The position numbers and the translations under genes are program-made. Positions 2,933 to 50,304 of a stretch of 64,000 bases of DNA are shown one piece after another. Below the pieces are notes generated by a model. It worked only from the letters and a program-made list of their open reading frames with translations. It made no database searches and was not told the DNA's origin. This DNA comes from an uncultured Eubacteriales bacterium (GTDB lineage Bacteria > Bacillota > Clostridia > Christensenellales > UBA1242), in NCBI GenBank assembly GCA_949001935.1, contig CARJLX010000001.1, positions 195,231 to 259,230 of the forward strand, read 5' to 3'. The stretch's first letter is position 1; each line of letters opens with the position of its first letter.

Positions 2933-4068
2933 ATTTAGACAAAATTGATAAAAGTTTGCTCAGCAAAGTGACAACATTTTCTTCAAACAATAACATTGAA
3001 TGTATAGTCAAAGTCAACAATATTGATAGAACTAGAAAATATTTTTTACATAGAAAAATAAAAATTCTACATGAATATTTATTCATAAATTCCTTTAAAA
3101 TACTTGTTAATAAAAAGCAACTTTTTCAAATTTCCTCTCTTACAAGCGTGAGTAAAATTTATTCTATCACTAGTGCTTGTGCAATGATTGATGTATCAAA
3201 AGAAATTTTAGGTGTTGACAAAACAGATTTAACTGGTCATGGTGTGACAGTTGCTTTTATTGACACAGGTATTTTTTCGCATGCGGATTTTCTTATCGGG
3301 CGTAATAGAATTAAGTTTTTTAAAGATTTTGTTTTAAATAAAAAACACAACTATGATGACAACGGACATGGCACTTTTGTAGCAGGTGTTTGTAGTGGGA
3401 GTGGAATTTTATCTGGAGGAGTTTATAGTGGGGTTGCTCCTCAAGTTGATATAATTTCCCTTAAAGCCCTGAATGGCTTAGGTGAGGCTTCTGCAGATAA
3501 AATTTTGGATGCTATGGAATGGGTTTTTGATAATCATAAAAAGTTTAATATCAAAGTTGTTTGTATGAGTTTCGGTAGTGAACCTTTAGGCTATAATGAT
3601 CCTATCATGAGTGGGGCTGAAGCTCTATGGAGAGAAGGTGTGACTGTTGTTGCAGCGGCTGGTAATAGTGGGCCAGAATATCAAACAATCAAAAGTCCTG
3701 GAGTAAGCAGTCAAATTATTACTGTTGGTGGTTTCGATGATAACCGAATTGATGGAAAATTTCAAGAGAGTTTTTTTGAAATTGCTGATTTTTCTTCACG
3801 AGGTCCTGCATTTAAAAGGTATAAGCCAGATCTTGTTGCTCCATCTGTTGATATTGTATCCTGTGGAATTTCAAAGTTTTATACAACTCTTAGCGGAACA
3901 AGTGTTGCTACACCAATGATTGCAGGAATTGCATGTTTACTTTTGGAAGCAAAGCCAAATTTAACACCTATGCAGATAAAACAAACTTTAATTTCGGCCT
4001 GTCGTCCTATAACTTTAAATCATAATTTTGAAGGATATGGCTATCCTAACTTTAAAAATTTGATATAA
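2929..4068 (+). CDS. Subtilisin-like serine protease (peptidase S8) with an I9-like N-terminal prodomain and no signal peptide
   Basis: Catalytic motifs in D-H-S order: AFIDTGI, HGTFVAG, AAAGNSGP (oxyanion Asn), GTSVATPMIAG. Confidence 0.9.
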   Translation: MNLDKIDKSLLSKVTTFSSNNNIECIVKVNNIDRTRKYFLHRKIKILHEYLFINSFKILVNKKQLFQISSLTSVSKIYSITSACAMIDVSKEILGVDKTDLTGHGVTVAFIDTGIFSHADFLIGRNRIKFFKDFVLNKKHNYDDNGHGTFVAGVCSGSGILSGGVYSGVAPQVDIISLKALNGLGEASADKILDAMEWVFDNHKKFNIKVVCMSFGSEPLGYNDPIMSGAEALWREGVTVVAAAGNSGPEYQTIKSPGVSSQIITVGGFDDNRIDGKFQESFFEIADFSSRGPAFKRYKPDLVAPSVDIVSCGISKFYTTLSGTSVATPMIAGIACLLLEAKPNLTPMQIKQTLISACRPITLNHNFEGYGYPNFKNLI

Positions 4069-4070
4069 AA

Positions 4071-4097
4071 ATACCATGCTAATTACATGGTATTTTT
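4071..4097. terminator. Bidirectional rho-independent terminator
   Basis: ataccatg / catggtat 8-bp stem followed by a T-run, between convergent genes. Confidence 0.7.
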
Positions 4098-4099
4098 AA

Positions 4100-5158
4100 T
4101 TAACCTAAAGGATTCTTCTTTTCAACTGTTTTAATAATTTCGACTATTTTTTCACAAGAATTAAAATTTTGAGTTAAATTCATATTTTTTTTGATTTTTT
4201 CATTGTTTTTAATCAAATTATCTAGTTTCATTAAAAACTTTTCTATATTATATTCCTCTTCTTGTAAAATATCTGCATTGCCCATATTTGCAAATAGTTT
4301 TGCATTTTCTATTTGATCACCGCGAGAACAAGATTTTGAAAGGGGAATTAAAAGTGCGGGAATTCTAAGAGCAAGAAGTTCATTGATTACTCCTGATCCT
4401 GCACGAGAAATTGCGTAGTCTGCAAAAGCATAATAATCGCCAATATTTTCAGCATACCTCACCTGAAGATAATTTTTATTTGTATGAGTTTCTTTTGCTT
4501 GTTTTCCTGCGATATGAACAACATTAAATTTTTTAGTTAACTCTTCTAAATTCTCCCATACTTTTTCGTTTATAAACTTTGCTCCCAAAGACCCACCTAT
4601 AACAAGTAGGTTTGGCAGTCGTCTATCAAAATCGCCTTGCTCTAAAATTTTGCTTCTATTTCCTTTAAATACCTTAGCTCGAATAGGTTGCCCTGTGAAA
4701 ACACATTTTTTTCTTTTTGCAGTTTGTTTAAAACTTGTGCACATAACATCGCATCTTTTTAAAATTATTTTGTTTGCAAGCCCAAAGGAAAGATCGCTTT
4801 CATGACTTACTATAGGAATGCCAAGTTTTCTTCCTGCTATAACAGTTGGAACAGAAACAAAACCACCTTTAGAAAAAATTACATTAGGTTTGATTTCTTT
4901 TAAAACTTTTTTTGCATCATGAATAGCTTTGACGAGTTTGAATGGGATAAGCAAATTTTTAGGTGTTAACTTTCTCTCTAGTTTTACTGCGGAAATTTCA
5001 TGAAAAGTTATTGTTTTTTCATTGGCTAATATTTCTTTTTCCATTCCGCTTCCGCCAATAAAATGAACTTGATAATCTTTATCTAAATTTTCGCTTACTG
5101 CTAGTGCAGGGTAGATATGCCCAGCGGTACCTCCGCCAGTTAAAACAATCTTCTTCAT
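4100..5158 (-). CDS. murG: Undecaprenyldiphospho-muramoylpentapeptide beta-N-acetylglucosaminyltransferase
   Basis: N-terminal GGGTAGHIYPALAV, C-terminal RAGSGVINELLAL..P and overall GT28 layout. AAGGAG RBS. Confidence 0.9.
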   Translation of the reverse strand: MKKIVLTGGGTAGHIYPALAVSENLDKDYQVHFIGGSGMEKEILANEKTITFHEISAVKLERKLTPKNLLIPFKLVKAIHDAKKVLKEIKPNVIFSKGGFVSVPTVIAGRKLGIPIVSHESDLSFGLANKIILKRCDVMCTSFKQTAKRKKCVFTGQPIRAKVFKGNRSKILEQGDFDRRLPNLLVIGGSLGAKFINEKVWENLEELTKKFNVVHIAGKQAKETHTNKNYLQVRYAENIGDYYAFADYAISRAGSGVINELLALRIPALLIPLSKSCSRGDQIENAKLFANMGNADILQEEEYNIEKFLMKLDNLIKNNEKIKKNMNLTQNFNSCEKIVEIIKTVEKKNPLG

Positions 5159-29388: not shown

Positions 29389-29547
29389 ATTAAATTTTAT
29401 TAATTTTTGTAATAAATTTTACATTCATGAGTATTTATATTTTAGGCGTAAGTTATTCGACAAATACTGGCAAATTATGAGTTTTTTCATGATTTTCTTT
29501 CTTGCTTTTTAACTGCGTTTTAATTTATATTTAAAAGTGAGGTTTGT

Positions 29548-30312
29548 ATGCATTTTTGCGTTATCAAATCAAGGACTATCAAAATCCTTATTGCTATGGC
29601 TGTTGTTATAACTCTTTTAACGGTTTCTTTTTATGGCGGAACCTGTGCCGAAGTCTTTTTTGGGTATGCGTCTAGGTTAGTTCCTATTTATAATGTTCAA
29701 ACAGAGGAAAAGGTGGTGGCTCTTTCTTACGATGCAGCTTGGGGAGCTGACAAAACCGAAGATATTTTAGCTGTACTCAAAGAATATGATGTTGAGGCAA
29801 CTTTCTTCCTTGTAGGTTTTTGGGTAGATAAATTTCCAGAAAAAGTGAAGGCTATCAAAGAGGCTGGAATGGAAATTGGAACTCATACAGATAGCCATCC
29901 AGATCTTGCCAAGAAGAATGCTGACACAATTAAGCAAGAGCTTGAAGTATCTATGAATAAGATCACCGCTATAACTGGAGATAATGTAGAACTCTTTAGA
30001 GCTCCATTTGGATCTTATAACAACACGGTTATCTCTGTTGCAAGTGGACTTGGGCTTAAAACTATTCAATGGAACATTGATTCCCTTGATTGGAAGGGAT
30101 TGTCTGCTCCTGATGTTAATTCTAGAGTTATGAATAATTTAAGCGAAGGATCTATCATTCTCATGCATAATAATGCCGATAATGTTGTTCAGTCAACAAG
30201 GCTTGTTTTGGAGGGCTTGAAAGGACGGGGGTATAAAGTTGTACCTATTGGGAAATTAATTTATCAAGATAATTATGTTATCGACAACGCAGGAAAACAA
30301 ATCAAAAAATAA
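29548..30312 (+). CDS. Polysaccharide deacetylase (NodB/CE4 domain), membrane-anchored
   Basis: SYDAAWG..., ATFFLVGFW, GTHTDSHPDL, LFRAPFGSY, IILMHN. N-terminal TM helix. Confidence 0.85.
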   Translation: MHFCVIKSRTIKILIAMAVVITLLTVSFYGGTCAEVFFGYASRLVPIYNVQTEEKVVALSYDAAWGADKTEDILAVLKEYDVEATFFLVGFWVDKFPEKVKAIKEAGMEIGTHTDSHPDLAKKNADTIKQELEVSMNKITAITGDNVELFRAPFGSYNNTVISVASGLGLKTIQWNIDSLDWKGLSAPDVNSRVMNNLSEGSIILMHNNADNVVQSTRLVLEGLKGRGYKVVPIGKLIYQDNYVIDNAGKQIKK

Positions 30313-30330: not shown

Positions 30331-31032
30331 ATGAACAACGAACAAAATCTAAATTCGAATTATGGGCAGCTTTTAGGAAAAATTGTAAGCAAGCCTATTC
30401 AAACTCATGAGTCTTACAATGAAAAATTTTATGAAGTTATGTTGGAGGTTAAAAGACTTTCCAAAAATTGTGACATTATTCCAGTTTCTTTTGGAGAAAG
30501 AATGCTTAAAAGTATTGACGATATTGCCGAGGGGAAGGAAATTGCTGTTAATGGAGAATTTAGAAGTTTTAACAAACTTGTTGATAACAAAAGCAAGCTT
30601 ATTCTATATTTCTTTGCCAAGAATTTTATTGGAGAAGAAGAAAAGAAGTTGATTGATATTGAGGAGTCAAACCAATTGATGTTGAAAGGTTTTATTTGTA
30701 AGCCTCCTGTTTTTAGAGAAACACCATTCGGTCGTCAAATTTGCGATTTATTACTTGCAGTTAATAGACCTGTTTATAACCGTTCTGATTATATTCCTTG
30801 TCTTGCTTGGGGGCGTAATGCTTTCTTCGCAAAACAATGGGCTGTTGGCACTAGCGTTGAAGTTGAGGGTAGAATTCAATCTCGACCTTATAAGAAAACA
30901 ACAGATAAGGGTGAAGAAGAACACGTTGCATATGAAGTTTCTTGCAAATCTATTGCAGTTATTGAAAATGCCGGTATTGAAAGTAAACAAAATGCTAATT
31001 ATAGTCAAGAAGAAGCACAAGTTGGTTGTTAA
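30331..31032 (+). CDS. Tandem-OB-fold SSB-like protein (paralogue 1), no canonical acidic tip
   Basis: The C-terminal half aligns with bacterial SSB (LLLAVNR...DYIPCLAWGRNA...VGTSVEVEGRIQSRPY...YEV). The N-terminal half repeats the pattern (DIIPVSFGERM...GKEIAVNGEFRSF). Confidence 0.7.
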   Translation: MNNEQNLNSNYGQLLGKIVSKPIQTHESYNEKFYEVMLEVKRLSKNCDIIPVSFGERMLKSIDDIAEGKEIAVNGEFRSFNKLVDNKSKLILYFFAKNFIGEEEKKLIDIEESNQLMLKGFICKPPVFRETPFGRQICDLLLAVNRPVYNRSDYIPCLAWGRNAFFAKQWAVGTSVEVEGRIQSRPYKKTTDKGEEEHVAYEVSCKSIAVIENAGIESKQNANYSQEEAQVGC

Positions 31033-31058
31033 AAAACATGCATAAATGCATGTTTTTT
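31033..31058 (+). terminator. Rho-independent terminator
   Basis: aaaacatgca / tgcatgtttt palindrome followed by a T-run. Confidence 0.7.
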
Positions 31059-42430: not shown

Positions 42431-44086
42431 TTGAATTCTAAAGTTAAAATCACCTTTTTGGGCGGTGTAGGTGAGATCGGAAAAAACATGACCGCTATTG
42501 AATATAATGATGAAATTATCGTTATTGATGCTGGATTAACATTCCCTGGCGATGATCTTCCTGGTATTGATATTGTTATTCCAGACATTTCTTATCTGGA
42601 AGCAAACAAAGACAAAGTTAAAGCTTTGATCATCACTCATGGACATGAAGATCATATTGGGGCTATGCCTTTTGTGCTTTCTACTTTAAAAGTTCCAGTT
42701 TATGGTTCAAGATTAACTCTTGCATTAATTGAAAATAAATTGAAAGAACATCCTAATATAAAATTTAAAGGCGTTACTGTTAAGCCTAAAAATATTTTAA
42801 AGATAGGTTCTTTTACTGTTGAGTTCATCAAGGTTAGCCATTCTATTGCTGGCTCACTGGCTCTTTGTATAGGTACTCCTGCTGGGAACATTGTTCATAC
42901 AGGTGACTTTAAGATTGATTATGAACCTATTGATGGAACTATTACTGACCTTACAAGATTTGGTGAACTTGGCAAAAAGGGGGTTAATCTACTTCTTTGC
43001 GAAAGTACCAATGTTTGTCGTAAAGGTTATTCAATGAGTGAAAAATCTGTTGGTCGCGCCTTGGAAGAAATTTTTAAAAGTCATACTGAGCAAAGAATAA
43101 TAGTTGCTACTTTTGCATCTAACATTCACAGAATGCAACAGATTATGGATTTAGCTGAAAAATATAAACGTAAAATTGCTTTTACTGGCAGAAGTATGGT
43201 TAATGTTAGTGAAGTTGCTATGAAAGTTGGGGAACTTTCTTTCAATCGTGAAAATATTGTCGATATTGAAAAGGTTGATAAAATGGCTGACAAGGAAGTT
43301 TGTATTTTGACTACTGGCAGTCAAGGCGAACCTATGAGTGCGTTAACACGCATGGCGGCAGGGGAATTTAAGGCTTTTAAACTTAGACAAAACGACCTTG
43401 TTATTTTGTCTGCTTCTCCGATTCCCGGAAATGAGAAAAATGTTTATAATGTTATCAACGCTTTATATAAACTTGGTGCAGATGTGATTTATGATGAGCT
43501 TGCGGATGTCCATGTTTCTGGTCACGCTTGCCAAGAAGAATTGAAACTTATTCATAGCCTTGTTAAACCAAAGTTCTTTATTCCAGTTCATGGCGAATAT
43601 AGACATTTGAAAACTCATAAAGAACTTGCTATGGGTCTTGGAATGGATGGGCGAAATGTTGTTCTTCCTAGTCTTGGTATGCAGGTTGAGCTTACTCCAA
43701 ACTCTATTAAAGAGGCTGGCTTTGTGACAGCAGGTCAACGCCTTGTTGATGGTATTGGGATTGGTGATATGGATTCTAATGTTCTTAAAGAAAGAAAACA
43801 ACTCTCTGAAGATGGTATTTGTGTTGTGGTGGTTTCGCTTAATAACATCAAAGGTGAAATCACATCTGATCCATTTATTATAACGAGAGGTGTTGTGTAT
43901 GCTGACGAACAAGAAAGTTTTGTTCAAGATGCCAAGGCATGCATCATTGCATCACTCAAAGAGTCTGACCTTCGTGGTATGGAACCTTCGGTTATTAAAA
44001 CATCAATTAGACGCAATATTTCTAACTTTATTTTCAAAAGAACAAAACGCCGTCCTATGATTATAACTATTGTCACACTTGATTAA
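42431..44086 (+). CDS. rnj: Ribonuclease J
   Basis: Metallo-beta-lactamase/beta-CASP: FLGGVGEIGKNM, ITHGHEDHIGA, VHVSGHA, PVHGEYRH. TTG start after an AGGAG RBS. Confidence 0.9.
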   Translation: MNSKVKITFLGGVGEIGKNMTAIEYNDEIIVIDAGLTFPGDDLPGIDIVIPDISYLEANKDKVKALIITHGHEDHIGAMPFVLSTLKVPVYGSRLTLALIENKLKEHPNIKFKGVTVKPKNILKIGSFTVEFIKVSHSIAGSLALCIGTPAGNIVHTGDFKIDYEPIDGTITDLTRFGELGKKGVNLLLCESTNVCRKGYSMSEKSVGRALEEIFKSHTEQRIIVATFASNIHRMQQIMDLAEKYKRKIAFTGRSMVNVSEVAMKVGELSFNRENIVDIEKVDKMADKEVCILTTGSQGEPMSALTRMAAGEFKAFKLRQNDLVILSASPIPGNEKNVYNVINALYKLGADVIYDELADVHVSGHACQEELKLIHSLVKPKFFIPVHGEYRHLKTHKELAMGLGMDGRNVVLPSLGMQVELTPNSIKEAGFVTAGQRLVDGIGIGDMDSNVLKERKQLSEDGICVVVVSLNNIKGEITSDPFIITRGVVYADEQESFVQDAKACIIASLKESDLRGMEPSVIKTSIRRNISNFIFKRTKRRPMIITIVTLD

Positions 44087-44108: not shown

Positions 44109-44705
44109 ATGAATAAAGACTTTTTGCAAGAATTAAAAAATTATGCTCTCGAAAAACGCGTACCTATCATTCGTGATAAAAGTGCGTTTTTTTTGCAAGA
44201 ACAAATAAAACTTGCAAAGGCAAAAAATATTTTAGAAATAGGAACCGCTGTCGGTTATTCAACCTGTCTTATGCTTGAAGCTAATACTGATGCAAATATA
44301 ACTACTATTGAGCTGAAAGAAGCTTCATATAAAATAGCTCTTGAAGTTTTTGTTGGAATGGGTGTTGAAAATCAGGTTGAAGCATGTAATGGTGATGCTA
44401 TAGAATGTTTGAAAGTTTTTGCCCAAGAGGGCAGAAAGTTTGATTTTATATTTTTAGATGGTCCAAAAGGGCAGTATATTAAATATCTGCCTTATTGTAA
44501 ACAAATGTTAGAAAGTGGTGGAATTATATTTGCAGATAATGTTTATCTTCATGGAATGGTTTTGCAACAAGAACCTATAAAACATAAACATAGAGCAATG
44601 GTCAACAATTTGAGGAAGTTTCTTTATGATATAACCCATGATGAGGAACTAGAAACAACAATTTATGAGCTTGAAGATGGGATTGCAATAATAAAGAAAA
44701 AATAG
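44109..44705 (+). CDS. trmR: Class I SAM-dependent O-methyltransferase, YrrM/TrmR-like
   Basis: Collinear with B. subtilis YrrM by eye: VPII..., ILEIGTAVGYS, FIFLDGPKGQY, ADNV, EDGIAIIKKK. Confidence 0.7.
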   Translation: MNKDFLQELKNYALEKRVPIIRDKSAFFLQEQIKLAKAKNILEIGTAVGYSTCLMLEANTDANITTIELKEASYKIALEVFVGMGVENQVEACNGDAIECLKVFAQEGRKFDFIFLDGPKGQYIKYLPYCKQMLESGGIIFADNVYLHGMVLQQEPIKHKHRAMVNNLRKFLYDITHDEELETTIYELEDGIAIIKKK

Positions 44706-44834
44706 AAAATTCAATCACAAGCAAACAGATAAAGACAAAATATAATAAAATTCGACAAAATGCGATATGAATACATATCGTTTTATTTTTTATATATAAT
44801 TACTCAAAAAAGTAGATTATTTTAAATTTACCTC

Positions 44835-44863
44835 TTGAAAACTTAAATTTTATGTGTTATACT
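44835..44863 (+). promoter_or_regulatory. Putative sigma-A promoter with extended -10
   Basis: TTGAAA, 17-nt spacer, TGtTATACT. Confidence 0.45.
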
Positions 44864-44887
44864 TTGGCTATTACAAGAGAGGGTATT

Positions 44888-45664
44888 ATGAAAAAGAAGA
44901 ATAAAAATAAATATATCAAAAAATTACATGCTGACAAACATCCAAAGACTAGAAAGGCAGTTTGCAAGGGGCAACAACGCGAAAACCCAAGAAGATGTAA
45001 AAAATATTATAATAAAATTGCAGGCGATATTAATGAAGGTTATATTTCTGGAGAATTAAACAATATTACATTTGGTTTTCCTGATAATGGTGAACATTTT
45101 ATAGAAACAGCAATTTATGTCCCTAGAACGTCAAACAATGTTGATATTATCCCTGTAGTTTTTACAGATAAAATCTATCAATTATATAAATCTCAACTAC
45201 ATAAAGGAAGGGTGACTTTGATTGGTACCTTTCAATCTGCAAATAGGGTAGTTAATAAGAAAAATACATTATTTAATTATTTTCAACCAACCTCTTTAGA
45301 TTTTGATGAAAATAAATATAAACAACGCAATAACTCTTTACATTTATGTGGAACAGTTTGTAATAAACCTACTTTAAAATGTTTGGAAAACAGCCAGATT
45401 TATTACTTTAAACTTGCAGTGAATACTCCTAATTTAGATAATTATATTCCAGTTTATGTAAGAGCTAAGAAAAGGGCTGGCGATATAATTAAAGATCTTA
45501 AGGTAGGAGATAGAGTAGACTTTTTAGGTCGAATTCAATCTAGGCAATATCATGAAAGCCAGGAGAAAATTAGAACTATAACCGAAATTTCTATTGCTAG
45601 GATAAATAGTGTTGAATATTTAGAAAGCAACACTAAAATCACTTCTAATAGTGAAAATGAATAA
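44888..45664 (+). CDS. Tandem-OB-fold SSB-like protein (paralogue 2) with a highly basic N-terminal extension
   Basis: VDIIPVVFTDK...GRVTLIGTFQSANR and NYIPVYVRAKKRA...VGDRVDFLGRIQSRQY. N-terminus KKKNKNKYIKKLHADKHPKTRK. Confidence 0.65.
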   Translation: MKKKNKNKYIKKLHADKHPKTRKAVCKGQQRENPRRCKKYYNKIAGDINEGYISGELNNITFGFPDNGEHFIETAIYVPRTSNNVDIIPVVFTDKIYQLYKSQLHKGRVTLIGTFQSANRVVNKKNTLFNYFQPTSLDFDENKYKQRNNSLHLCGTVCNKPTLKCLENSQIYYFKLAVNTPNLDNYIPVYVRAKKRAGDIIKDLKVGDRVDFLGRIQSRQYHESQEKIRTITEISIARINSVEYLESNTKITSNSENE

Positions 45665-45665
45665 G

Positions 45666-45690
45666 AATGCCAATAATTTGGCATTTTTTG
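45666..45690 (+). terminator. Rho-independent terminator
   Basis: aatgccaa / ttggcatt stem followed by a T-run. Confidence 0.75.
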
Positions 45691-45738
45691 TTGCCATATT
45701 TTTTAAGGTAAGTCATATAATTCCTTGAGGAGTGATTT

Positions 45739-46374
45739 ATGATAAAATATTTTAAAAAGGGTACTTTTAATTATGAAGATATTAACAATGCTTACATTGT
45801 TGGTTGCGCAAATGGTGAAATTTTGAAATTTAGAATTAATGCAGGTCAGATTCTGGTTAGGACTGTTTTAGAAGTTCCAAGACAGAGTGGACGGATTGAT
45901 TATATTCCTATCGCTATTCAAAATGATATTTATATGCAACATGAGGAAAGTATTAAAAATAAAAAGCTTGTTTATAGAGGGGATTTTAGAGGATATCGTG
46001 CAAGAAGGAAATATCAAGGCAAGTTTGATAGTCATATTCTTGTGGATTTAATTGATGAAAATGTTGATGAATACAAAAGTAATAACAATATTGAGCTTTA
46101 TGGGCGAGTGGAATCTCCGCCAAAATTGCGACCATTTAATGATGGAAGTGAGTCGTGTTATGTAAATATATGTGTAGATAATTTAGGCTTTAAAAGTCAT
46201 ATTCCTTGTTTCGCAAAAAATTCTTACAAACAAGATGTAAAATGTTTGCAGGTTGATGATAGAATTTATTTTTTAGGTCGAATTCGCTCGCGTGAATTTC
46301 ATATTCCAAACACTAATGAAACTGCAAACTTTAACGAGATTGAAATTAACAAAGTTAAAGCAATAGAATATTAA
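45739..46374 (+). CDS. Tandem-OB-fold SSB-like protein (paralogue 3)
   Basis: IDYIPIAIQND...KKLVYRGDFRGYR and SHIPCFAKNSY...VDDRIYFLGRIRSREF. GAGGAG RBS. Confidence 0.65.
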   Translation: MIKYFKKGTFNYEDINNAYIVGCANGEILKFRINAGQILVRTVLEVPRQSGRIDYIPIAIQNDIYMQHEESIKNKKLVYRGDFRGYRARRKYQGKFDSHILVDLIDENVDEYKSNNNIELYGRVESPPKLRPFNDGSESCYVNICVDNLGFKSHIPCFAKNSYKQDVKCLQVDDRIYFLGRIRSREFHIPNTNETANFNEIEINKVKAIEY

Positions 46375-46415
46375 AATTTTGGAATATAGTTTGAATTACA
46401 GACATATATTGTCCT

Positions 46416-47147
46416 ATGAAAAGAATTCATATAGGCGTTATTAATTTTAGAAAATATTGGTCAAACATTGCAATTTTTGCAATGATTTTGGTTGTCGGCT
46501 TAGTGGCTTTTGTAGGAAGCATTGGACTTCCTGCCTCTAGTGCAGTGAGTGGTGTTTATTATAACGGTGATCGAAGTTCAAAAAATATTTCTCTTATGAT
46601 AAATGTTTATTGGGGGACTGAGTATTTAGATAATATGCTTGCTACTTTAAAGGAAAAGGATGTTAAAACCACCTTTTTTGTAGGCGGAACTTGGGCAGTT
46701 TTAAACGAGGAATATTTAAAGAAAATACAAGAAGATGGTCATGAAATCGCTAATCATGGTTATCATCATAAAGATCATGATAAAATAAGTGAGCAAGAAA
46801 ATTTTAATGAAATTTCCAACACTCATAAAATAATTAAAGAGCTTATAGATGTTGATATGACACTTTTTGCTCCACCTAGTGGTGCTTATAATAAAGTGAC
46901 AGTTGAGGCTGCTCAAAATCTAGGTTATAAAACTATCATGTGGACTCGTGACACAATTGATTGGCGTGATCATAATACTCAATTGATTTATCAAAGGGCT
47001 ATCAAAAATGCAAATGGTGGTGATTTAATTTTGATGCATCCAACTCAAAATACTATGGAGGCTTTGCCACAAATTATAGATTGGTTTCAATCAAATGGCT
47101 ATAATTTAGTTCCTGTTTCAACAAATATTGGGGGACTTTCGGATTAG
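46416..47147 (+). CDS. Polysaccharide deacetylase (NodB/CE4), PdaB-like, membrane-anchored
   Basis: INVYWGTEYLDNML, TTFFVGGTWA, GHEIANHGYHH, LFAPPSGAY, LILMHP. N-terminal TM helix. Confidence 0.8.
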   Translation: MKRIHIGVINFRKYWSNIAIFAMILVVGLVAFVGSIGLPASSAVSGVYYNGDRSSKNISLMINVYWGTEYLDNMLATLKEKDVKTTFFVGGTWAVLNEEYLKKIQEDGHEIANHGYHHKDHDKISEQENFNEISNTHKIIKELIDVDMTLFAPPSGAYNKVTVEAAQNLGYKTIMWTRDTIDWRDHNTQLIYQRAIKNANGGDLILMHPTQNTMEALPQIIDWFQSNGYNLVPVSTNIGGLSD

Positions 47148-47325: not shown

Positions 47326-50304
47326 ATGGCTATATTTCAAGTTTCTAAAAAAAATAAGAAAGAAAAAAACACCGCCAATGCTAAAAAAATTACTGGTGCA
47401 ACTATGCTTGGTGTTGCCTCTGTTTTGTTCCTTTTTTCTGTAACGAGTTTATGGCCTTGGGCTCAAGGTGTTATTTTAGGCATTTTTGGGGTATTTATCT
47501 ATCCTCTTTGTATACTTTCTATGATTGTTGGGCTTGCTTTACTAAATAATCGTAGATATGTTATGAGTAAACGTTATGCTGTTTTTCTTTCTTTAAGCAT
47601 AATCTTTTTGCTTGCAATAATTCAACTAATAATCGTTGGAAACAAGTTTAATGTAGAAGGTGTGCAATATTCTTATGGGCAATATCTTGCTTTAAATTTT
47701 ACCCAAAAATGGACAGCTGGCGGAATTATTATTGGTCTTTTGACTACTTCGCTTTTAATTCCTCTCAATTTGGCTGGCACATATGTTATTTTATGTCTTG
47801 CACTTTTAATTTCTTGTGCTTTCTTTGCCGAGGCTTTGATAAGTTATCGCAAAAATGCAAATGTTAATGCACCTGTAAAAATTCAAATTAAAGAGAATAA
47901 AAAGAAAAATATTGATGTGGCAAGGCAAGAAGCAATTAAGCCTAAGGAAGAAATCAATATTGTTATGAATGGTGAAATTCAAGAAGAACTTGATCGTGAG
48001 AAGAATGCCAAAGCCATGGCAGGCTTAACTCGAACTATGACAACAGACAATAATTTTTTTGGAGCTTATAATAGTAAGCCAGAGCCGAAACAAAAAGGGG
48101 GTATTCCTGAAGGGAAAAGTGTTAAGGAATATCTTCTTGAACCCCCAACTGTTGATATGGAAGAGTTTTTTGCAAGGCAACAAAAGTTTACTCGTACTCA
48201 TGCCAAAACTCAACCTCAAACAATTGACATGGGAGAGGCTAAGTCAAAAATAGATAATAATATAAATTCATTGAAGGAAAATGATTATATAAAACCAACT
48301 CAGCATGTTTACGAAGCCCAGTATGATTTCTCACAAGAACAAGCACCAATAAAGCGTGGAAATCTTCCAGAAATTAAGCCTGAAGAGTTATTGTCTGAAG
48401 CTGATAACATAATTTTTAATGCTACTAGAGAGGAACTTGCTGATCTTGGCGAAGATATTTCCTTTGCTAAAAATGATGATGACGATTTTATTATTAGACG
48501 AGATAGCAATATCACAGCAAGAGAAGAAGATATGCACAAGTCTACAAATGACGAGATAAACACTTCATTCACTTCACGAAGTGATGGTTATTTACGCGAT
48601 ACTACAGGTTATTCGCGTGTTAGTGAAAGTGAGAATTTGGCTAGGGAGCGTAATTTAGAAAACCTAACTTCTTTAACAGATCGTAGTGGAAGAGATAATT
48701 TAGCTAGAGGCTTAGACAGGCGTGAAGGCAATTTAACTAGAGATAATGATATGTCTAGACGGGGAGGACTTGAAAATAACGATCGTTCTCGCAGGTTTGA
48801 TGTGTCACAAAATAAACCGCAAGAAAAGGAAGTTAGATTTAAGCCTTATAAGTATTCAAAACCTTCTATTGATTTAATAACAACAGCATCTGACGACCTT
48901 TCTTTATTGAATGGTGAAGTTCCTGCAAAGCGTGTAGCTCTTGAAAATGCTCTTGAAAAATTTGGTGTTCCAGCAAAAGTTGTTAGTGTTGTTATTGGAC
49001 CAACTGTAACTCGTTATGAAATTGCTATGCCAGAGGGTATAAGCGTTAAGAAAATCCTCTCTCTTGATGCAGATATAGCTTATGCTCTTTCAGCTCGTGG
49101 GCAAATAAGAATTGAAGCACCTGTGCCAGGTCGCAGTATTGTAGGTATTGAAGTGCCAAACGATAAGGTTGCAAAAGTTTCTATTAAGGATGTGTTGATG
49201 AGTAAGGAATTTACTATGTCACCATCTCCACTCGCTTTTTCTCTTGGTAAAGATATCACAGGTACCGTTAGAGTTTGTAACCTAGCCAAAATGCCTCACT
49301 TACTTGTTGCAGGTACAACTGGTTCGGGTAAGAGTGTGTGCTTGAATGCTATAATTGTTAGTATTTTGTACAAAGCTTCTCCGGATGATGTTAAATTTAT
49401 TATGATTGACCCTAAACAAGTTGAACTTTCTATGTATGAGGGGCTTCCTCATATGGTTGTTCCAAAGGTTATTACTGATGCGACTAAGGCTGTTAATGCT
49501 CTTCAGTGGGCTGTTGATGAAATGGAGCGAAGATTTAATCTTATCAGTGAGGCAAGAGTTCGTAATATCGATGAGTATAATAAGACAGAAGATGTTGTTA
49601 GTGGAAAGAAAAAGAAGATACCTTTCCTAGTTATAATTTTTGATGAGTTTGCCGACTTTATGCTTGTTGCTAAGAATGAGATTGAAGATAAAATTATGCG
49701 ACTTGCACAAAAGGCGAGAGCTGCAGGTATTCACTTAATTTTGGCAACACAACGTCCTTCAACCGATGTTGTGACTGGAACTATTAAAGCCAACTTCCCA
49801 GCTCGTATAGCCTTTAAGGTGGCAAGTAGGGTAGATGGTGAAGTTATTATGGGTTCTCCTGGTGCTGAAAAACTTCTTGGCTATGGTGATATGCTTTATA
49901 AACCTTCTGATTCTGCTCCTGCCAGAATTCAAGGCTGCTTTATTGATACTCCAGAGACTAAAGATGTCGTTAATTTTATTATTGAGAATAACGAAGAAAC
50001 CTATGATGAAGAGGCATTTAATGCAATTAATAATCCAGGCAAACCTTCTGGTAATGGCAGTGGAGATGATAATTCGGGGATGGATCCACTTCTTCCTCAA
50101 GCACTTAAGATTTGTATTGATGTTGGTGTAGCTTCTACAACAATGGTTCAAAGAAAACTTTCAATTGGCTATCCTCGTGCTGCAAGAATTATTGACCAAA
50201 TGGAGGAGCGAGGTTATATTTCTTCGGCAGAAGGCTCTAAACAGCGTACAGTTTATACAAGTATAGAAGAGTTCTATGAGATTTTTGGAGATACTTATGA
50301 ATAA
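47326..50304 (+). CDS. ftsK: DNA translocase FtsK/SpoIIIE
   Basis: N-terminal TM helices and a long low-complexity linker. Motor: LLVAGTTGSGKSV Walker A, LVIIFDEFAD Walker B, ATQRPS. C-terminal gamma wHTH: ASTTMVQRKLSIGYPRAARIIDQMEERGYIS. Confidence 0.95.
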   Translation: MAIFQVSKKNKKEKNTANAKKITGATMLGVASVLFLFSVTSLWPWAQGVILGIFGVFIYPLCILSMIVGLALLNNRRYVMSKRYAVFLSLSIIFLLAIIQLIIVGNKFNVEGVQYSYGQYLALNFTQKWTAGGIIIGLLTTSLLIPLNLAGTYVILCLALLISCAFFAEALISYRKNANVNAPVKIQIKENKKKNIDVARQEAIKPKEEINIVMNGEIQEELDREKNAKAMAGLTRTMTTDNNFFGAYNSKPEPKQKGGIPEGKSVKEYLLEPPTVDMEEFFARQQKFTRTHAKTQPQTIDMGEAKSKIDNNINSLKENDYIKPTQHVYEAQYDFSQEQAPIKRGNLPEIKPEELLSEADNIIFNATREELADLGEDISFAKNDDDDFIIRRDSNITAREEDMHKSTNDEINTSFTSRSDGYLRDTTGYSRVSESENLARERNLENLTSLTDRSGRDNLARGLDRREGNLTRDNDMSRRGGLENNDRSRRFDVSQNKPQEKEVRFKPYKYSKPSIDLITTASDDLSLLNGEVPAKRVALENALEKFGVPAKVVSVVIGPTVTRYEIAMPEGISVKKILSLDADIAYALSARGQIRIEAPVPGRSIVGIEVPNDKVAKVSIKDVLMSKEFTMSPSPLAFSLGKDITGTVRVCNLAKMPHLLVAGTTGSGKSVCLNAIIVSILYKASPDDVKFIMIDPKQVELSMYEGLPHMVVPKVITDATKAVNALQWAVDEMERRFNLISEARVRNIDEYNKTEDVVSGKKKKIPFLVIIFDEFADFMLVAKNEIEDKIMRLAQKARAAGIHLILATQRPSTDVVTGTIKANFPARIAFKVASRVDGEVIMGSPGAEKLLGYGDMLYKPSDSAPARIQGCFIDTPETKDVVNFIIENNEETYDEEAFNAINNPGKPSGNGSGDDNSGMDPLLPQALKICIDVGVASTTMVQRKLSIGYPRAARIIDQMEERGYISSAEGSKQRTVYTSIEEFYEIFGDTYE

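Follow-up and report, generated by a model that had tools for sequence, protein, structure and literature searches.

Two adjacent genes upstream of a YlxY-like deacetylase gene probably encode accessory paralogues of a sporulation-linked two-OB-fold family

A 64-kb stretch of genomic DNA from an uncultured gut Eubacteriales bacterium (64,000 nucleotides of contig CARJLX010000001.1, hereafter the window) carries two neighbouring genes whose products, OB2 and OB3, appear from sequence to be lineage-restricted, fast-evolving and basic paralogues of a clostridial protein family with two OB folds per chain, catalogued as PRK05813 or NF004476. A third protein of the window, OB1, is by profile score a regular member of that family. 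OB3 is followed by a gene for a CE4 (NodB-type) deacetylase, and OB1 itself follows a second gene of this type. On balance, we think it probable that OB2 and OB3 are derived two-OB accessory paralogues of a sporulation-linked family, and that their deacetylase neighbourhood results from shared sporulation control. Homology, predicted fold, phyletic pattern and motif conservation were computed; coordinates are those of the window, except where a contig (C) of the window's own 1.04-Mb genome (G000) is named. A preliminary description of the window had noted the OB2 and OB3 reading frames, both of which are present as described. The main genes are:

44888-45664, + strand: OB2, 258 residues, with a predicted disordered Lys/Arg-rich tail (1-47), two OB folds (49-243) and no acidic tip
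45739-46374, + strand: OB3, 211 residues, two predicted OB folds without tails, the most divergent of the three paralogues
46416-47147, + strand: membrane-anchored, YlxY-like CE4 (NodB-type) deacetylase (PF01522, 101.6 bits)
29548-30312, + strand: PdaB-like CE4 deacetylase, first gene of the CE4-OB1 pair (PF01522, 120.7 bits)
30331-31032, + strand: OB1, 233 residues, regular PRK05813/NF004476 member by profile score, 18 nucleotides 3' of the deacetylase gene

The CE4-OB1 pair lies about 14.5 kb upstream of the OB2-OB3 region. The three OB proteins are paralogues, as the preliminary description had proposed: BLASTP relates OB2 to OB3 (28% identity over 201 residues, E 3e-22), OB2 to OB1 (33%, E 4e-20) and OB3 to OB1 (22%, E 8e-9). 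It had also read two OB-like halves into each chain from a repeated IP and G..S motif pattern, and AlphaFold2 models, Foldseek searches and comparison of the two halves all agree with this. The OB3 model, built on a 72-sequence alignment (predicted local distance difference test, pLDDT, 89; predicted template-modelling score 0.85), comprises two barrels of the order beta1-3/helix/beta4-5, spanning residues 15-106 and 117-210, each with the OB-typical helix between strands 3 and 4. That of OB2 reaches a pLDDT of 79 overall and about 90 in its barrels (49-243), the tail (1-47) and the last 11 residues being disordered. For both proteins the top full-length matches in the Protein Data Bank (PDB) are the two-OB SSBs (proteins that bind single-stranded DNA) of Thermus thermophilus, T. 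aquaticus and Deinococcus radiodurans (2CWA, 2FXQ and 1SE8, Foldseek E 1e-12 to 4e-11; 1e-12 to 1e-9 over the Deinococcus-Thermus set). OB3 aligns with 2CWA at E 5e-12 and a template-modelling (TM) score of 0.72; with TM normalised to query length, OB3 scores 0.66-0.72 and OB2 0.56-0.58, the length of OB2 including its disordered tails. Single-OB SSBs rank lower and match half a chain only. Within the family, N- and C-terminal halves are related (hhalign probability 95%, E 2e-8, 79 columns), and the DxIP and G-R-I-x-S-R motifs are among 13 columns invariant across the 72 aligned sequences. Each OB2 or OB3 chain is predicted from these models to be a pseudo-dimer of two SSB-type OB barrels.

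Membership of the known family is graded. Against NF004476 (cut-off 171 bits) OB1 scores 230.4, OB2 76.9 and OB3 40.6 bits, so that only OB1 passes, and the matches of OB2 and OB3 run from end to end. The Pfam SSB model (PF00436, gathering score 26) gives 61 bits for OB1, 38.4 for OB2 in its C-terminal half only, and 13.5 for OB3; OB2 reaches 18.8 bits with TIGR00621 (cut-off 53.95). The near-invariant motifs of the family are RLSxxxDIIP, TPFxREICD, AVNR, DYIPCIAWGRNA and GRIQSRxY; OB2 and OB3 retain only R-x-S...D-x-x-P and G-R-I-x-S-R, with TPFxREICD, AVNR and AWGRNA gone. This is a large family (over 5,400 clusters in the 90% database) that exceeds the cut-off in 229 of 300 evenly sampled Clostridia genomes and in 37 of 41 relatives, as against none of 14 control genomes, B. 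subtilis among them; its members always occur beside a canonical SSB. The preliminary description had called two OB folds per chain the Deinococcus-Thermus solution, unusual for Bacillota. The likeness of fold stands, but the architecture is not foreign to Bacillota, being common in Clostridia given its presence in 229 of the 300 genomes. The best-described member is Tte0829 of Thermoanaerobacter tengcongensis, 'EndoTT', a two-OB protein of 216 residues that binds single-stranded DNA (ssDNA) in vitro and for which cleavage was reported (PMC2887958). C. difficile CD3235 and C. acetobutylicum CAC2382 are given as its homologues (Fig. 1 legend, PMC2887958). The T. tengcongensis member also carries the name 'TtePriB', as given in a passage of PMC12614216 and in the PDB title of 4GS3, the structure of an N-terminal domain that matches the family profile with E 2e-30.

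In several respects the proteins depart from canonical SSBs. Their C-termini read ...EEAQVGC (OB1), ...SNSENE (OB2) and ...KAIEY (OB3), and the acidic tip D-D-D-I/L-P-F, which the preliminary description had found missing, is indeed absent from all three; the canonical SSB of this genome ends in DDDDSLPF and is encoded elsewhere, in an rpsF-ssb-rpsR locus on another contig (C4:25477-26859), a gene different from those of OB1 to OB3. The Lys/Arg-rich N-terminal extension of about 45 residues claimed for OB2 is also borne out (18 Lys plus Arg in 46 residues, isoelectric point 10.5), and is kept among OB2 orthologues. Whole-protein isoelectric points are 9.65 for OB2, 8.68 for OB3 and 5.90 for OB1. 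In the alignment, the conserved Trp of the C-terminal barrel is replaced by Lys in both OB2 and OB3; we take this Trp to correspond to the ssDNA-stacking aromatic residue established for E. coli and Bacillota SSBs. OB2 and OB3 are putative nucleic-acid-binding proteins. With basic isoelectric points (8.7-9.7 versus 5.9), Trp replaced by Lys and the OB2 tail, binding would be more electrostatic, and without the acidic tip it would proceed without recruiting the usual SSB partners. Two chains could form the four-barrel unit that Thermus and Deinococcus SSBs use for ssDNA, and an OB2-OB3 heterodimer is a candidate because the two genes always occur together.

OB2 and OB3 form a small side branch of the family. 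In a word-indexed search of a 5.8-billion-protein set, each had two close orthologues, located on shared contigs; an exhaustive HMMER search, which was needed to reach the family, returned 259 matches, seven of them at E <= 1e-10. Further members amount to a handful: OB2-like proteins of 257-259 residues with the basic tail and OB3-like proteins of 214-215 residues. Proteins of both types share a C-terminal S(I/V)EY(K) ending. Among 81 species genomes of the genus, only 2 contain the pair. In a phylogenetic tree the OB2 and OB3 types form one clade apart from canonical members (support 100/98). The ratio of nonsynonymous to synonymous substitution rates is 0.15-0.28 for OB2 and 0.10-0.12 for OB3, versus 0.01-0.04 for neighbouring genes at similar synonymous divergence (0.01-0.03 for the deacetylase gene at 46416), so both genes are under purifying selection, looser than that on their neighbours. 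Recent duplication of the local OB1 gene was rejected as a source: OB2 and OB3 are not nested within the OB1 clade of the genus, and long branches leave their exact origin uncertain.

Taken as a whole, the PRK05813 family behaves as a sporulation gene, and the two tests that follow concern the family at that level. In C. difficile, a sigE mutant expresses CD3235 at 0.03 of the wild-type level, and a sigma-E promoter has been mapped for this gene; its expression rises 3.6-fold in a spoIIID mutant, and three polysaccharide deacetylases behave alike (PMC3789822). Across 40 Clostridia genomes, SpoIVA is present in 19 of the 20 that contain the family versus 6 of the 20 that do not (Fisher p = 4e-5). 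The genome of the window itself has Spo0A (227 bits, cut-off 200), SpoIVA (640 bits) and a SigG homologue just over the cut-off of one SigG model (373.7 versus 372 bits); its SigE-, SigF-, SigK- and SigH-like genes match those models best, mostly just below cut-off. Together with the Spo0A-box-like motifs described below and the operon with a PdaB-like deacetylase gene, SpoIVA co-occurrence and the C. difficile sigma-E regulon point to a sporulation-stage role.

The order rnj-OMT-OB2-OB3-CE4-ftsK, where OMT is an O-methyltransferase gene, is kept in four related loci (L008, L010, L158 and the more distant relative L157) and partly in genome G012. The neighbouring genes and candidate signals are:

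29456-29462, + strand: TTCGACA, the second copy in the window, 92 nucleotides upstream of the CE4-OB1 operon
31033-31058: terminator after OB1
42431-44086, + strand: RNase J (rnj)
44109-44705, + strand: O-methyltransferase (OMT)
44751-44757, + strand: TTCGACA, reverse complement of the Spo0A-box core TGTCGAA, between the OMT stop codon and the terminator, about 85 nucleotides 5' of the OB2 -35 element
44762-44790, + strand: terminator-like hairpin GCGATATG-AATA-CATATCGT and T run, ending OMT; in the same place in L008, L010 and L157
44835-44863, + strand: sigma-A-type promoter-like element of OB2, TTGAAA-17-(TG)TATACT, with extended -10 (10 of 12 matches)
45666-45692, + strand: terminator-like hairpin after OB2, AATGCCAA-TAAT-TTGGCATT then TTTTGTT; equivalent in L008, L010 and L157
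45694-45722, + strand: promoter-like element of OB3, CCATATT-N14-CATATAAT, fitting the mother-cell sigma-E/K type and readable as a sigma-A -10
46382-46410, + strand: sigma-E-type promoter-like element of the CE4 gene, GAATATA-N14-CATATATT, ending 5 nucleotides before the ATG
47326-50304, + strand: FtsK

These signals suggest three transcription units. OB2 would use a sigma-A-type promoter, preceded by a Spo0A-box-like motif, and OB3 a CATA-type promoter; the YlxY-like deacetylase gene would have a sigma-E-type promoter to itself and an mRNA that is apparently leaderless. The preliminary description had given OB2 its own promoter-like element and terminator; both are there and both are conserved in L008, L010 and L157 (promoter-like element TTGAAT-17-TGTGTTATAAT). 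OB2 likely starts at ATG 44888 rather than at ATG 44852, because the latter lies inside this conserved element and AGAGAGGG precedes 44888. The OB3 element matches the sigma-E-like pattern ATA-N15-17-CATA[CT]A[ACT]T 18 nucleotides before the ATG; its -10, CATATAA(T), is conserved in the same three loci, and its -35 varies. Genome-wide, this strict pattern has 14 intergenic matches, and those directly before genes include the ones at spoIVA, OB3, the deacetylase gene at 46416 and a gene for a Gate-domain protein (SpmA-like, below cut-off). At this last gene (C8:16856-17449) the CATA -10 also has a leaderless-type geometry.

For the deacetylase gene at 46416, a CATA-type -10 stands 5-6 nucleotides before the ATG in 12 of 13 readable orthologues from the genus (L142-L154), several of which carry GTCATA at -35 with or without an upstream OB gene, and no Shine-Dalgarno sequence precedes the ATG at 46416 or that of its orthologues across the genus. 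Because of this conserved geometry and the missing Shine-Dalgarno sequence, we infer that the gene is expressed from its own mother-cell promoter as a leaderless mRNA. The gap of 41 nucleotides without a hairpin between OB3 and this gene, from which co-transcription had been proposed, was confirmed in the window. Co-transcription is not needed, as the gap is filled by a conserved sigma-E-type promoter-like element, but read-through from OB3 is possible in this lineage because no hairpin intervenes; L157 has a terminator-like hairpin at this point.

The core of the Spo0A box is TGTCGAA (PMC3485338). In either orientation this motif occurs only twice in the window, at 29456 and 44751, upstream of the CE4-OB1 operon and of OB2. 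The site at 44751 is conserved in L008, L010 and L157, and thus stands before OB2 in all four lineages. TTCGACA is found at -79 to -94 in 17 of 19 loci of the genus, against 0.33 expected from shuffles, and in 21 of 59 CE4-first operons of other species. Genome-wide, 30 of 53 copies of TTCGACAA are intergenic, versus an intergenic fraction of 12.6%, and one copy lies upstream of spo0A. Inspected by eye, the genes downstream of 36 intergenic TTCGACA motifs are a mix of apparent housekeeping and sporulation-related genes, spo0A included. Three sites (C1:392556, C1:449111 and C4:109339) share an identical stretch of at least 28 nucleotides containing the Spo0A-box-like motif (TTTCGACAAAGTTCTCAAATAAAAAAGTT), and C7:4702 and C7:21291 are a further identical pair; these sites look like copies of a repeated element.

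The two deacetylases of the window are 30% identical to each other. The protein encoded at 46416, with an N-terminal hydrophobic segment, had been described as PdaB-like, a label that we replace by YlxY-like on its best score (188.3 bits with TIGR02873 for YlxY, cut-off 391.5; 177.2 with TIGR02764 for PdaB, cut-off 237.4) and on the pnpA-CE4-ftsK synteny of relatives. The deacetylase upstream of OB1 (29548) scores 198 bits with TIGR02764. Synteny of the 46416-type gene with ftsK extends across the genus, pnpA lying upstream in some members. In all but one of 15 genomes examined (14 of the genus and one of a sister genus) this gene stands directly before ftsK; none of the 15 has diverged OB genes upstream of it by tblastn and the HMM of A1, the slot being occupied by pnpA or unrelated genes. 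On inspection by eye, the YlxY-like protein has ...MINVYWG... where the PdaB-like one has ...SYDAAWG... and so seems to lack the Asp of NodB motif 1; it may thus depart from standard CE4 chemistry.

The association between family genes and deacetylase genes, for which the preliminary description had suggested a neighbourhood analysis, is real and conserved. Among 80 loci from as many Clostridia species, 59 have a CE4 gene upstream on the same strand, and many of the gaps measure 11-80 nucleotides: the gene is directly adjacent in 40 and separated by one gene in 19, and in the remaining 21 no CE4 gene occurs within 4 kb. In the 19 species with a gene between (loci L059, L061, L065, L068, L072 and others), that gene encodes about 160 residues without a Pfam or NCBIfam match. 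The pair is found in 18 of 19 loci fetched from the genus; for other families of the order the count is 7 of 11. This arrangement of a CE4 gene followed by a PRK05813 gene is old and widespread, and the juxtaposition of OB2 and OB3 with the gene at 46416 is young. The latter echoes the ancient CE4-OB operon, and co-regulation accounts for it most economically. The linkage of cytoplasmic OB proteins with an extracytoplasmic deacetylase had been regarded as unexpected; its simplest account is shared sporulation-stage expression, as suggested by the sigma-E dependence of CD3235, the co-occurrence with SpoIVA and the TTCGACA motifs. The neighbourhood would then most likely be a cluster of genes switched on at sporulation onset or early in the mother cell, with no biochemical hand-off between the OB protein and the enzyme.

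Several observations weigh against this explanation. The sigma-factor and Spo0A assignments were made by consensus matching: the -10 of OB3 (CATATAAT) holds a perfect sigma-A TATAAT, its -35 being unconserved, and the Spo0A-box-like motif lies about 115 nucleotides upstream of the probable OB2 start and before a terminator hairpin, an unusual position for an activator. The residue expected to stack on nucleic acid is missing from both OB2 and OB3. SpoIVA persists in 6 of the 20 genomes that lack the family, which is therefore not required for sporulation, and since OB2 and OB3 occur in only 2 of 81 genomes of the genus, they cannot be core sporulation functions. In a second tree with other taxa, the OB2 plus OB3 clade has support of only 69/48, with long branches. 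Lastly, the adjacency to CE4 genes in 59 of 80 species, in a fixed order, is tighter than co-regulation alone needs.

This strict conservation of gene order keeps a direct functional tie in play. In such a module the OB protein would bind an oligosaccharide, a peptidoglycan precursor or the cytoplasmic N-terminus of the deacetylase, and so control or localise deacetylation of cortex or cell wall, OB2 and OB3 being specialised partners of the YlxY-like enzyme. We consider this rather unlikely. Besides the adjacency with its short gaps (18 nucleotides in the window), it can call on the second, independent juxtaposition that arose in this lineage between OB2-OB3 and the YlxY-like gene, on a family member in phage Dulem virus 39 encoded directly after a 'cell wall hydrolase' gene, and on the ability of OB folds to bind oligosaccharides, OB2 and OB3 having lost the SSB-type Trp. 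However, in-vitro binding of ssDNA is known for EndoTT, the homology of the C-terminal barrel to SSB is clear (61 and 38 bits with the Pfam SSB model), and neither a signal peptide nor a transmembrane segment is visible in the OB protein sequences. Nor is the linkage universal, 21 of the 80 species lacking a nearby CE4 gene and 19 having a gene between. The YlxY-like gene has its own promoter and lacks an OB neighbour in all 14 other genus genomes checked, OB2 and OB3 being found in 2 of 81; and in C. difficile the sigma-E deacetylases CD3248, CD3257 and CD1319 share the regulation of CD3235 without lying next to it, judging by locus numbers. A more elaborate proposal, to which we attach little confidence, is that the PRK05813 protein and the upstream PdaB-like deacetylase act jointly in sporulation and that the YlxY-like enzyme has recruited OB2 and OB3 as a heterodimeric offshoot, the scaffold either linking nucleoid or nucleic acid to remodelling of the forespore envelope or being re-purposed for a glycan or lipid-linked precursor.

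OB2 and OB3 might instead derive from a mobile element such as a phage, as its remnant or its cargo; the two SSBs, part of a recombination or replication module, would have landed between rnj-OMT and ylxY-ftsK and would now be drifting or serving a phage-related role. Their patchy distribution (2 of 81 genomes), fast evolution and locally low G+C content (down to 27-28%, versus 32% genome-wide) would fit, as would the variable gene upstream of the deacetylase gene between species and the occurrence of the family in phage records (PHROG 26861, 108 bits to OB1; the member in Dulem virus 39, near RecT). Yet the pair has a housekeeping gene on either side and no integrase, repeats or other phage genes next to it, and the phage copies are of canonical type, falling inside the canonical clade and not with OB2 and OB3. 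With purifying selection, and promoters and terminators conserved across at least four lineages, we find this origin improbable. It is similarly doubtful that the OB proteins are EndoTT-type endonucleases cutting ssDNA or single-strand/double-strand junctions, for instance in the processing or destruction of mother-cell DNA. The reported cleavage requires G170, R172 and G177 (PMC2887958). In the corresponding segment OB2 keeps the whole motif (GDRVDFLGR), OB1 keeps G170 and G177 with Ser for R172 (GTSVEVEGR), and OB3 keeps R172 and G177 with Asp for G170 (DDRIYFLGR). But the activity comes from a single in-vitro study at high protein:DNA ratios, for a protein without a recognisable nuclease fold; the mutated glycines lie in a beta4-beta5 region structurally conserved in all SSBs (GRLQ/GRIQ), so that misfolding or a co-purified nuclease may explain the lost activity. 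Finally, a role as PriB-like replication-restart factors or back-up housekeeping SSBs seems very improbable, even if a T. tengcongensis member was deposited as 'PriB' (4GS3) and the mainly electrostatic DNA contacts of PriB would suit basic proteins. OB1 matches TIGR04418 (PriB_gamma) at only 27.3 bits against a cut-off of 72, and OB2 and OB3 gave no match to that model, which rules out membership on score. The family tracks SpoIVA, not replication genes, its C. difficile member is expressed from a sigma-E promoter, and a canonical SSB with an acidic tip is present. Replication restart in Bacillota uses DnaD, DnaB and DnaI, not PriB, which also counts against such a role; the 'PriB' label is nominal.

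Three records bear on the phage side of the family. Dulem virus 39 (L159, PP511791.1) is a temperate phage that has CI/Cro and RecT, and its positions 3974-4600 encode a canonical-type PRK05813 protein. PHROG 26861, whose function is listed as 'unknown', corresponds to the PRK05813 family. MT835503.1 (L160), an 'UNVERIFIED Bacteriophage sp.' entry, carries a CE4-OB pair and is probably a bacterial contig, which tells against a mobile origin.

The reading of OB2 and OB3 as derived accessory paralogues can be set against known systems. Like EndoTT and the PRK05813 family, they are chromosomally encoded alongside a canonical SSB and have two consecutive SSB-type OB folds, DxIP and GRIxSR motifs and no acidic tip, in a family whose proteins have some 210-230 residues; OB1 is a full member by score, and the G-D-R...G-R segment targeted by mutation in EndoTT is retained in OB2. 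Unlike that family, OB2 and OB3 lie far under its cut-off, have lost its motifs TPFxREICD, AVNR and AWGRNA and its Trp (now Lys), are basic where the family is acidic, carry the ending S(I/V)EY(K), with a 47-residue basic tail on OB2, and form an adjacent pair in one small sub-lineage only. The SSBs of Deinococcus-Thermus (2CWA, 2FXQ, 1SE8 and 3UDG) share two OB folds per chain and give the best full-length structural matches, but are only 13-16% identical in sequence to OB2 and OB3, and each is the sole SSB of its cell and bears an acidic tip, whereas the OB proteins here are tail-less accessories to a normal SSB. Bacillota SsbA and SsbB (PF00436; 6BHX, 3VDY) have a barrel homologous to the C-terminal one, with (D)(Y/F)I(P/N)C...GR(I/L)Q(S/T)R in common; in contrast, they are homotetramers with one OB fold per chain, an acidic tip and an rpsF-ssb-rpsR locus. 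As for YlxY and PdaB of B. subtilis, the two window deacetylases match TIGR02873 and TIGR02764 best and resemble them in a membrane anchor followed by a NodB domain and in a mother-cell-type promoter, and the gene at 46416 has a pnpA/ftsK neighbourhood in relatives; we take B. subtilis ylxY likewise to follow pnpA. Both nevertheless fall under the equivalog cut-offs (188 versus 391.5 and 198 versus 237.4 bits), and B. subtilis, like the other control genomes, has no protein over the family cut-off and hence no PRK05813 gene beside either.

Databases label the family plainly as 'single-stranded DNA-binding protein'. Its names conflict between the two papers known to treat it, endonuclease in one case and 'PriB' in the other; neither the EndoTT study nor the cited passage on 'TtePriB' places it in sporulation. 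Should a sporulation role be confirmed, a nucleic-acid-binding component would be added to the early mother-cell programme of Clostridia and a widespread annotation corrected; otherwise, OB2 and OB3 would represent an ordinary paralogue expansion of a known family. With a basic tail, a lost stacking Trp and paired genes, OB2 and OB3 show continuing diversification of the scaffold, even in a 1-Mb genome with few spare genes.

Some further observations concern the sporulation genes of this and related genomes. For two short genes (C3:29445-29807 and C3:54809-55060; 162 and 166 residues) the match to Spo0A is confined to its C-terminal, DNA-binding part (73 and 55 bits), and the first of them has three TTCGACA boxes upstream. 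A second, shorter SigK/SigE-like gene (217 residues, 146 bits with the SigK subfamily model) directly follows the SigK-like gene (C1:290545-290748 and C1:291317-291529), and seven sigma-70-type genes are present in total. In three genomes of class relatives (G062, contig C162; G042, contig C10; and G064), spoIVA matches fall into two pieces, a 5' one covering residues 1 to about 403 and a 3' one covering about 399-492. The pieces are some 6 kb apart in G062, some 22 kb apart in G042 and on separate contigs in G064, an arrangement suggestive of an intervening element within spoIVA.

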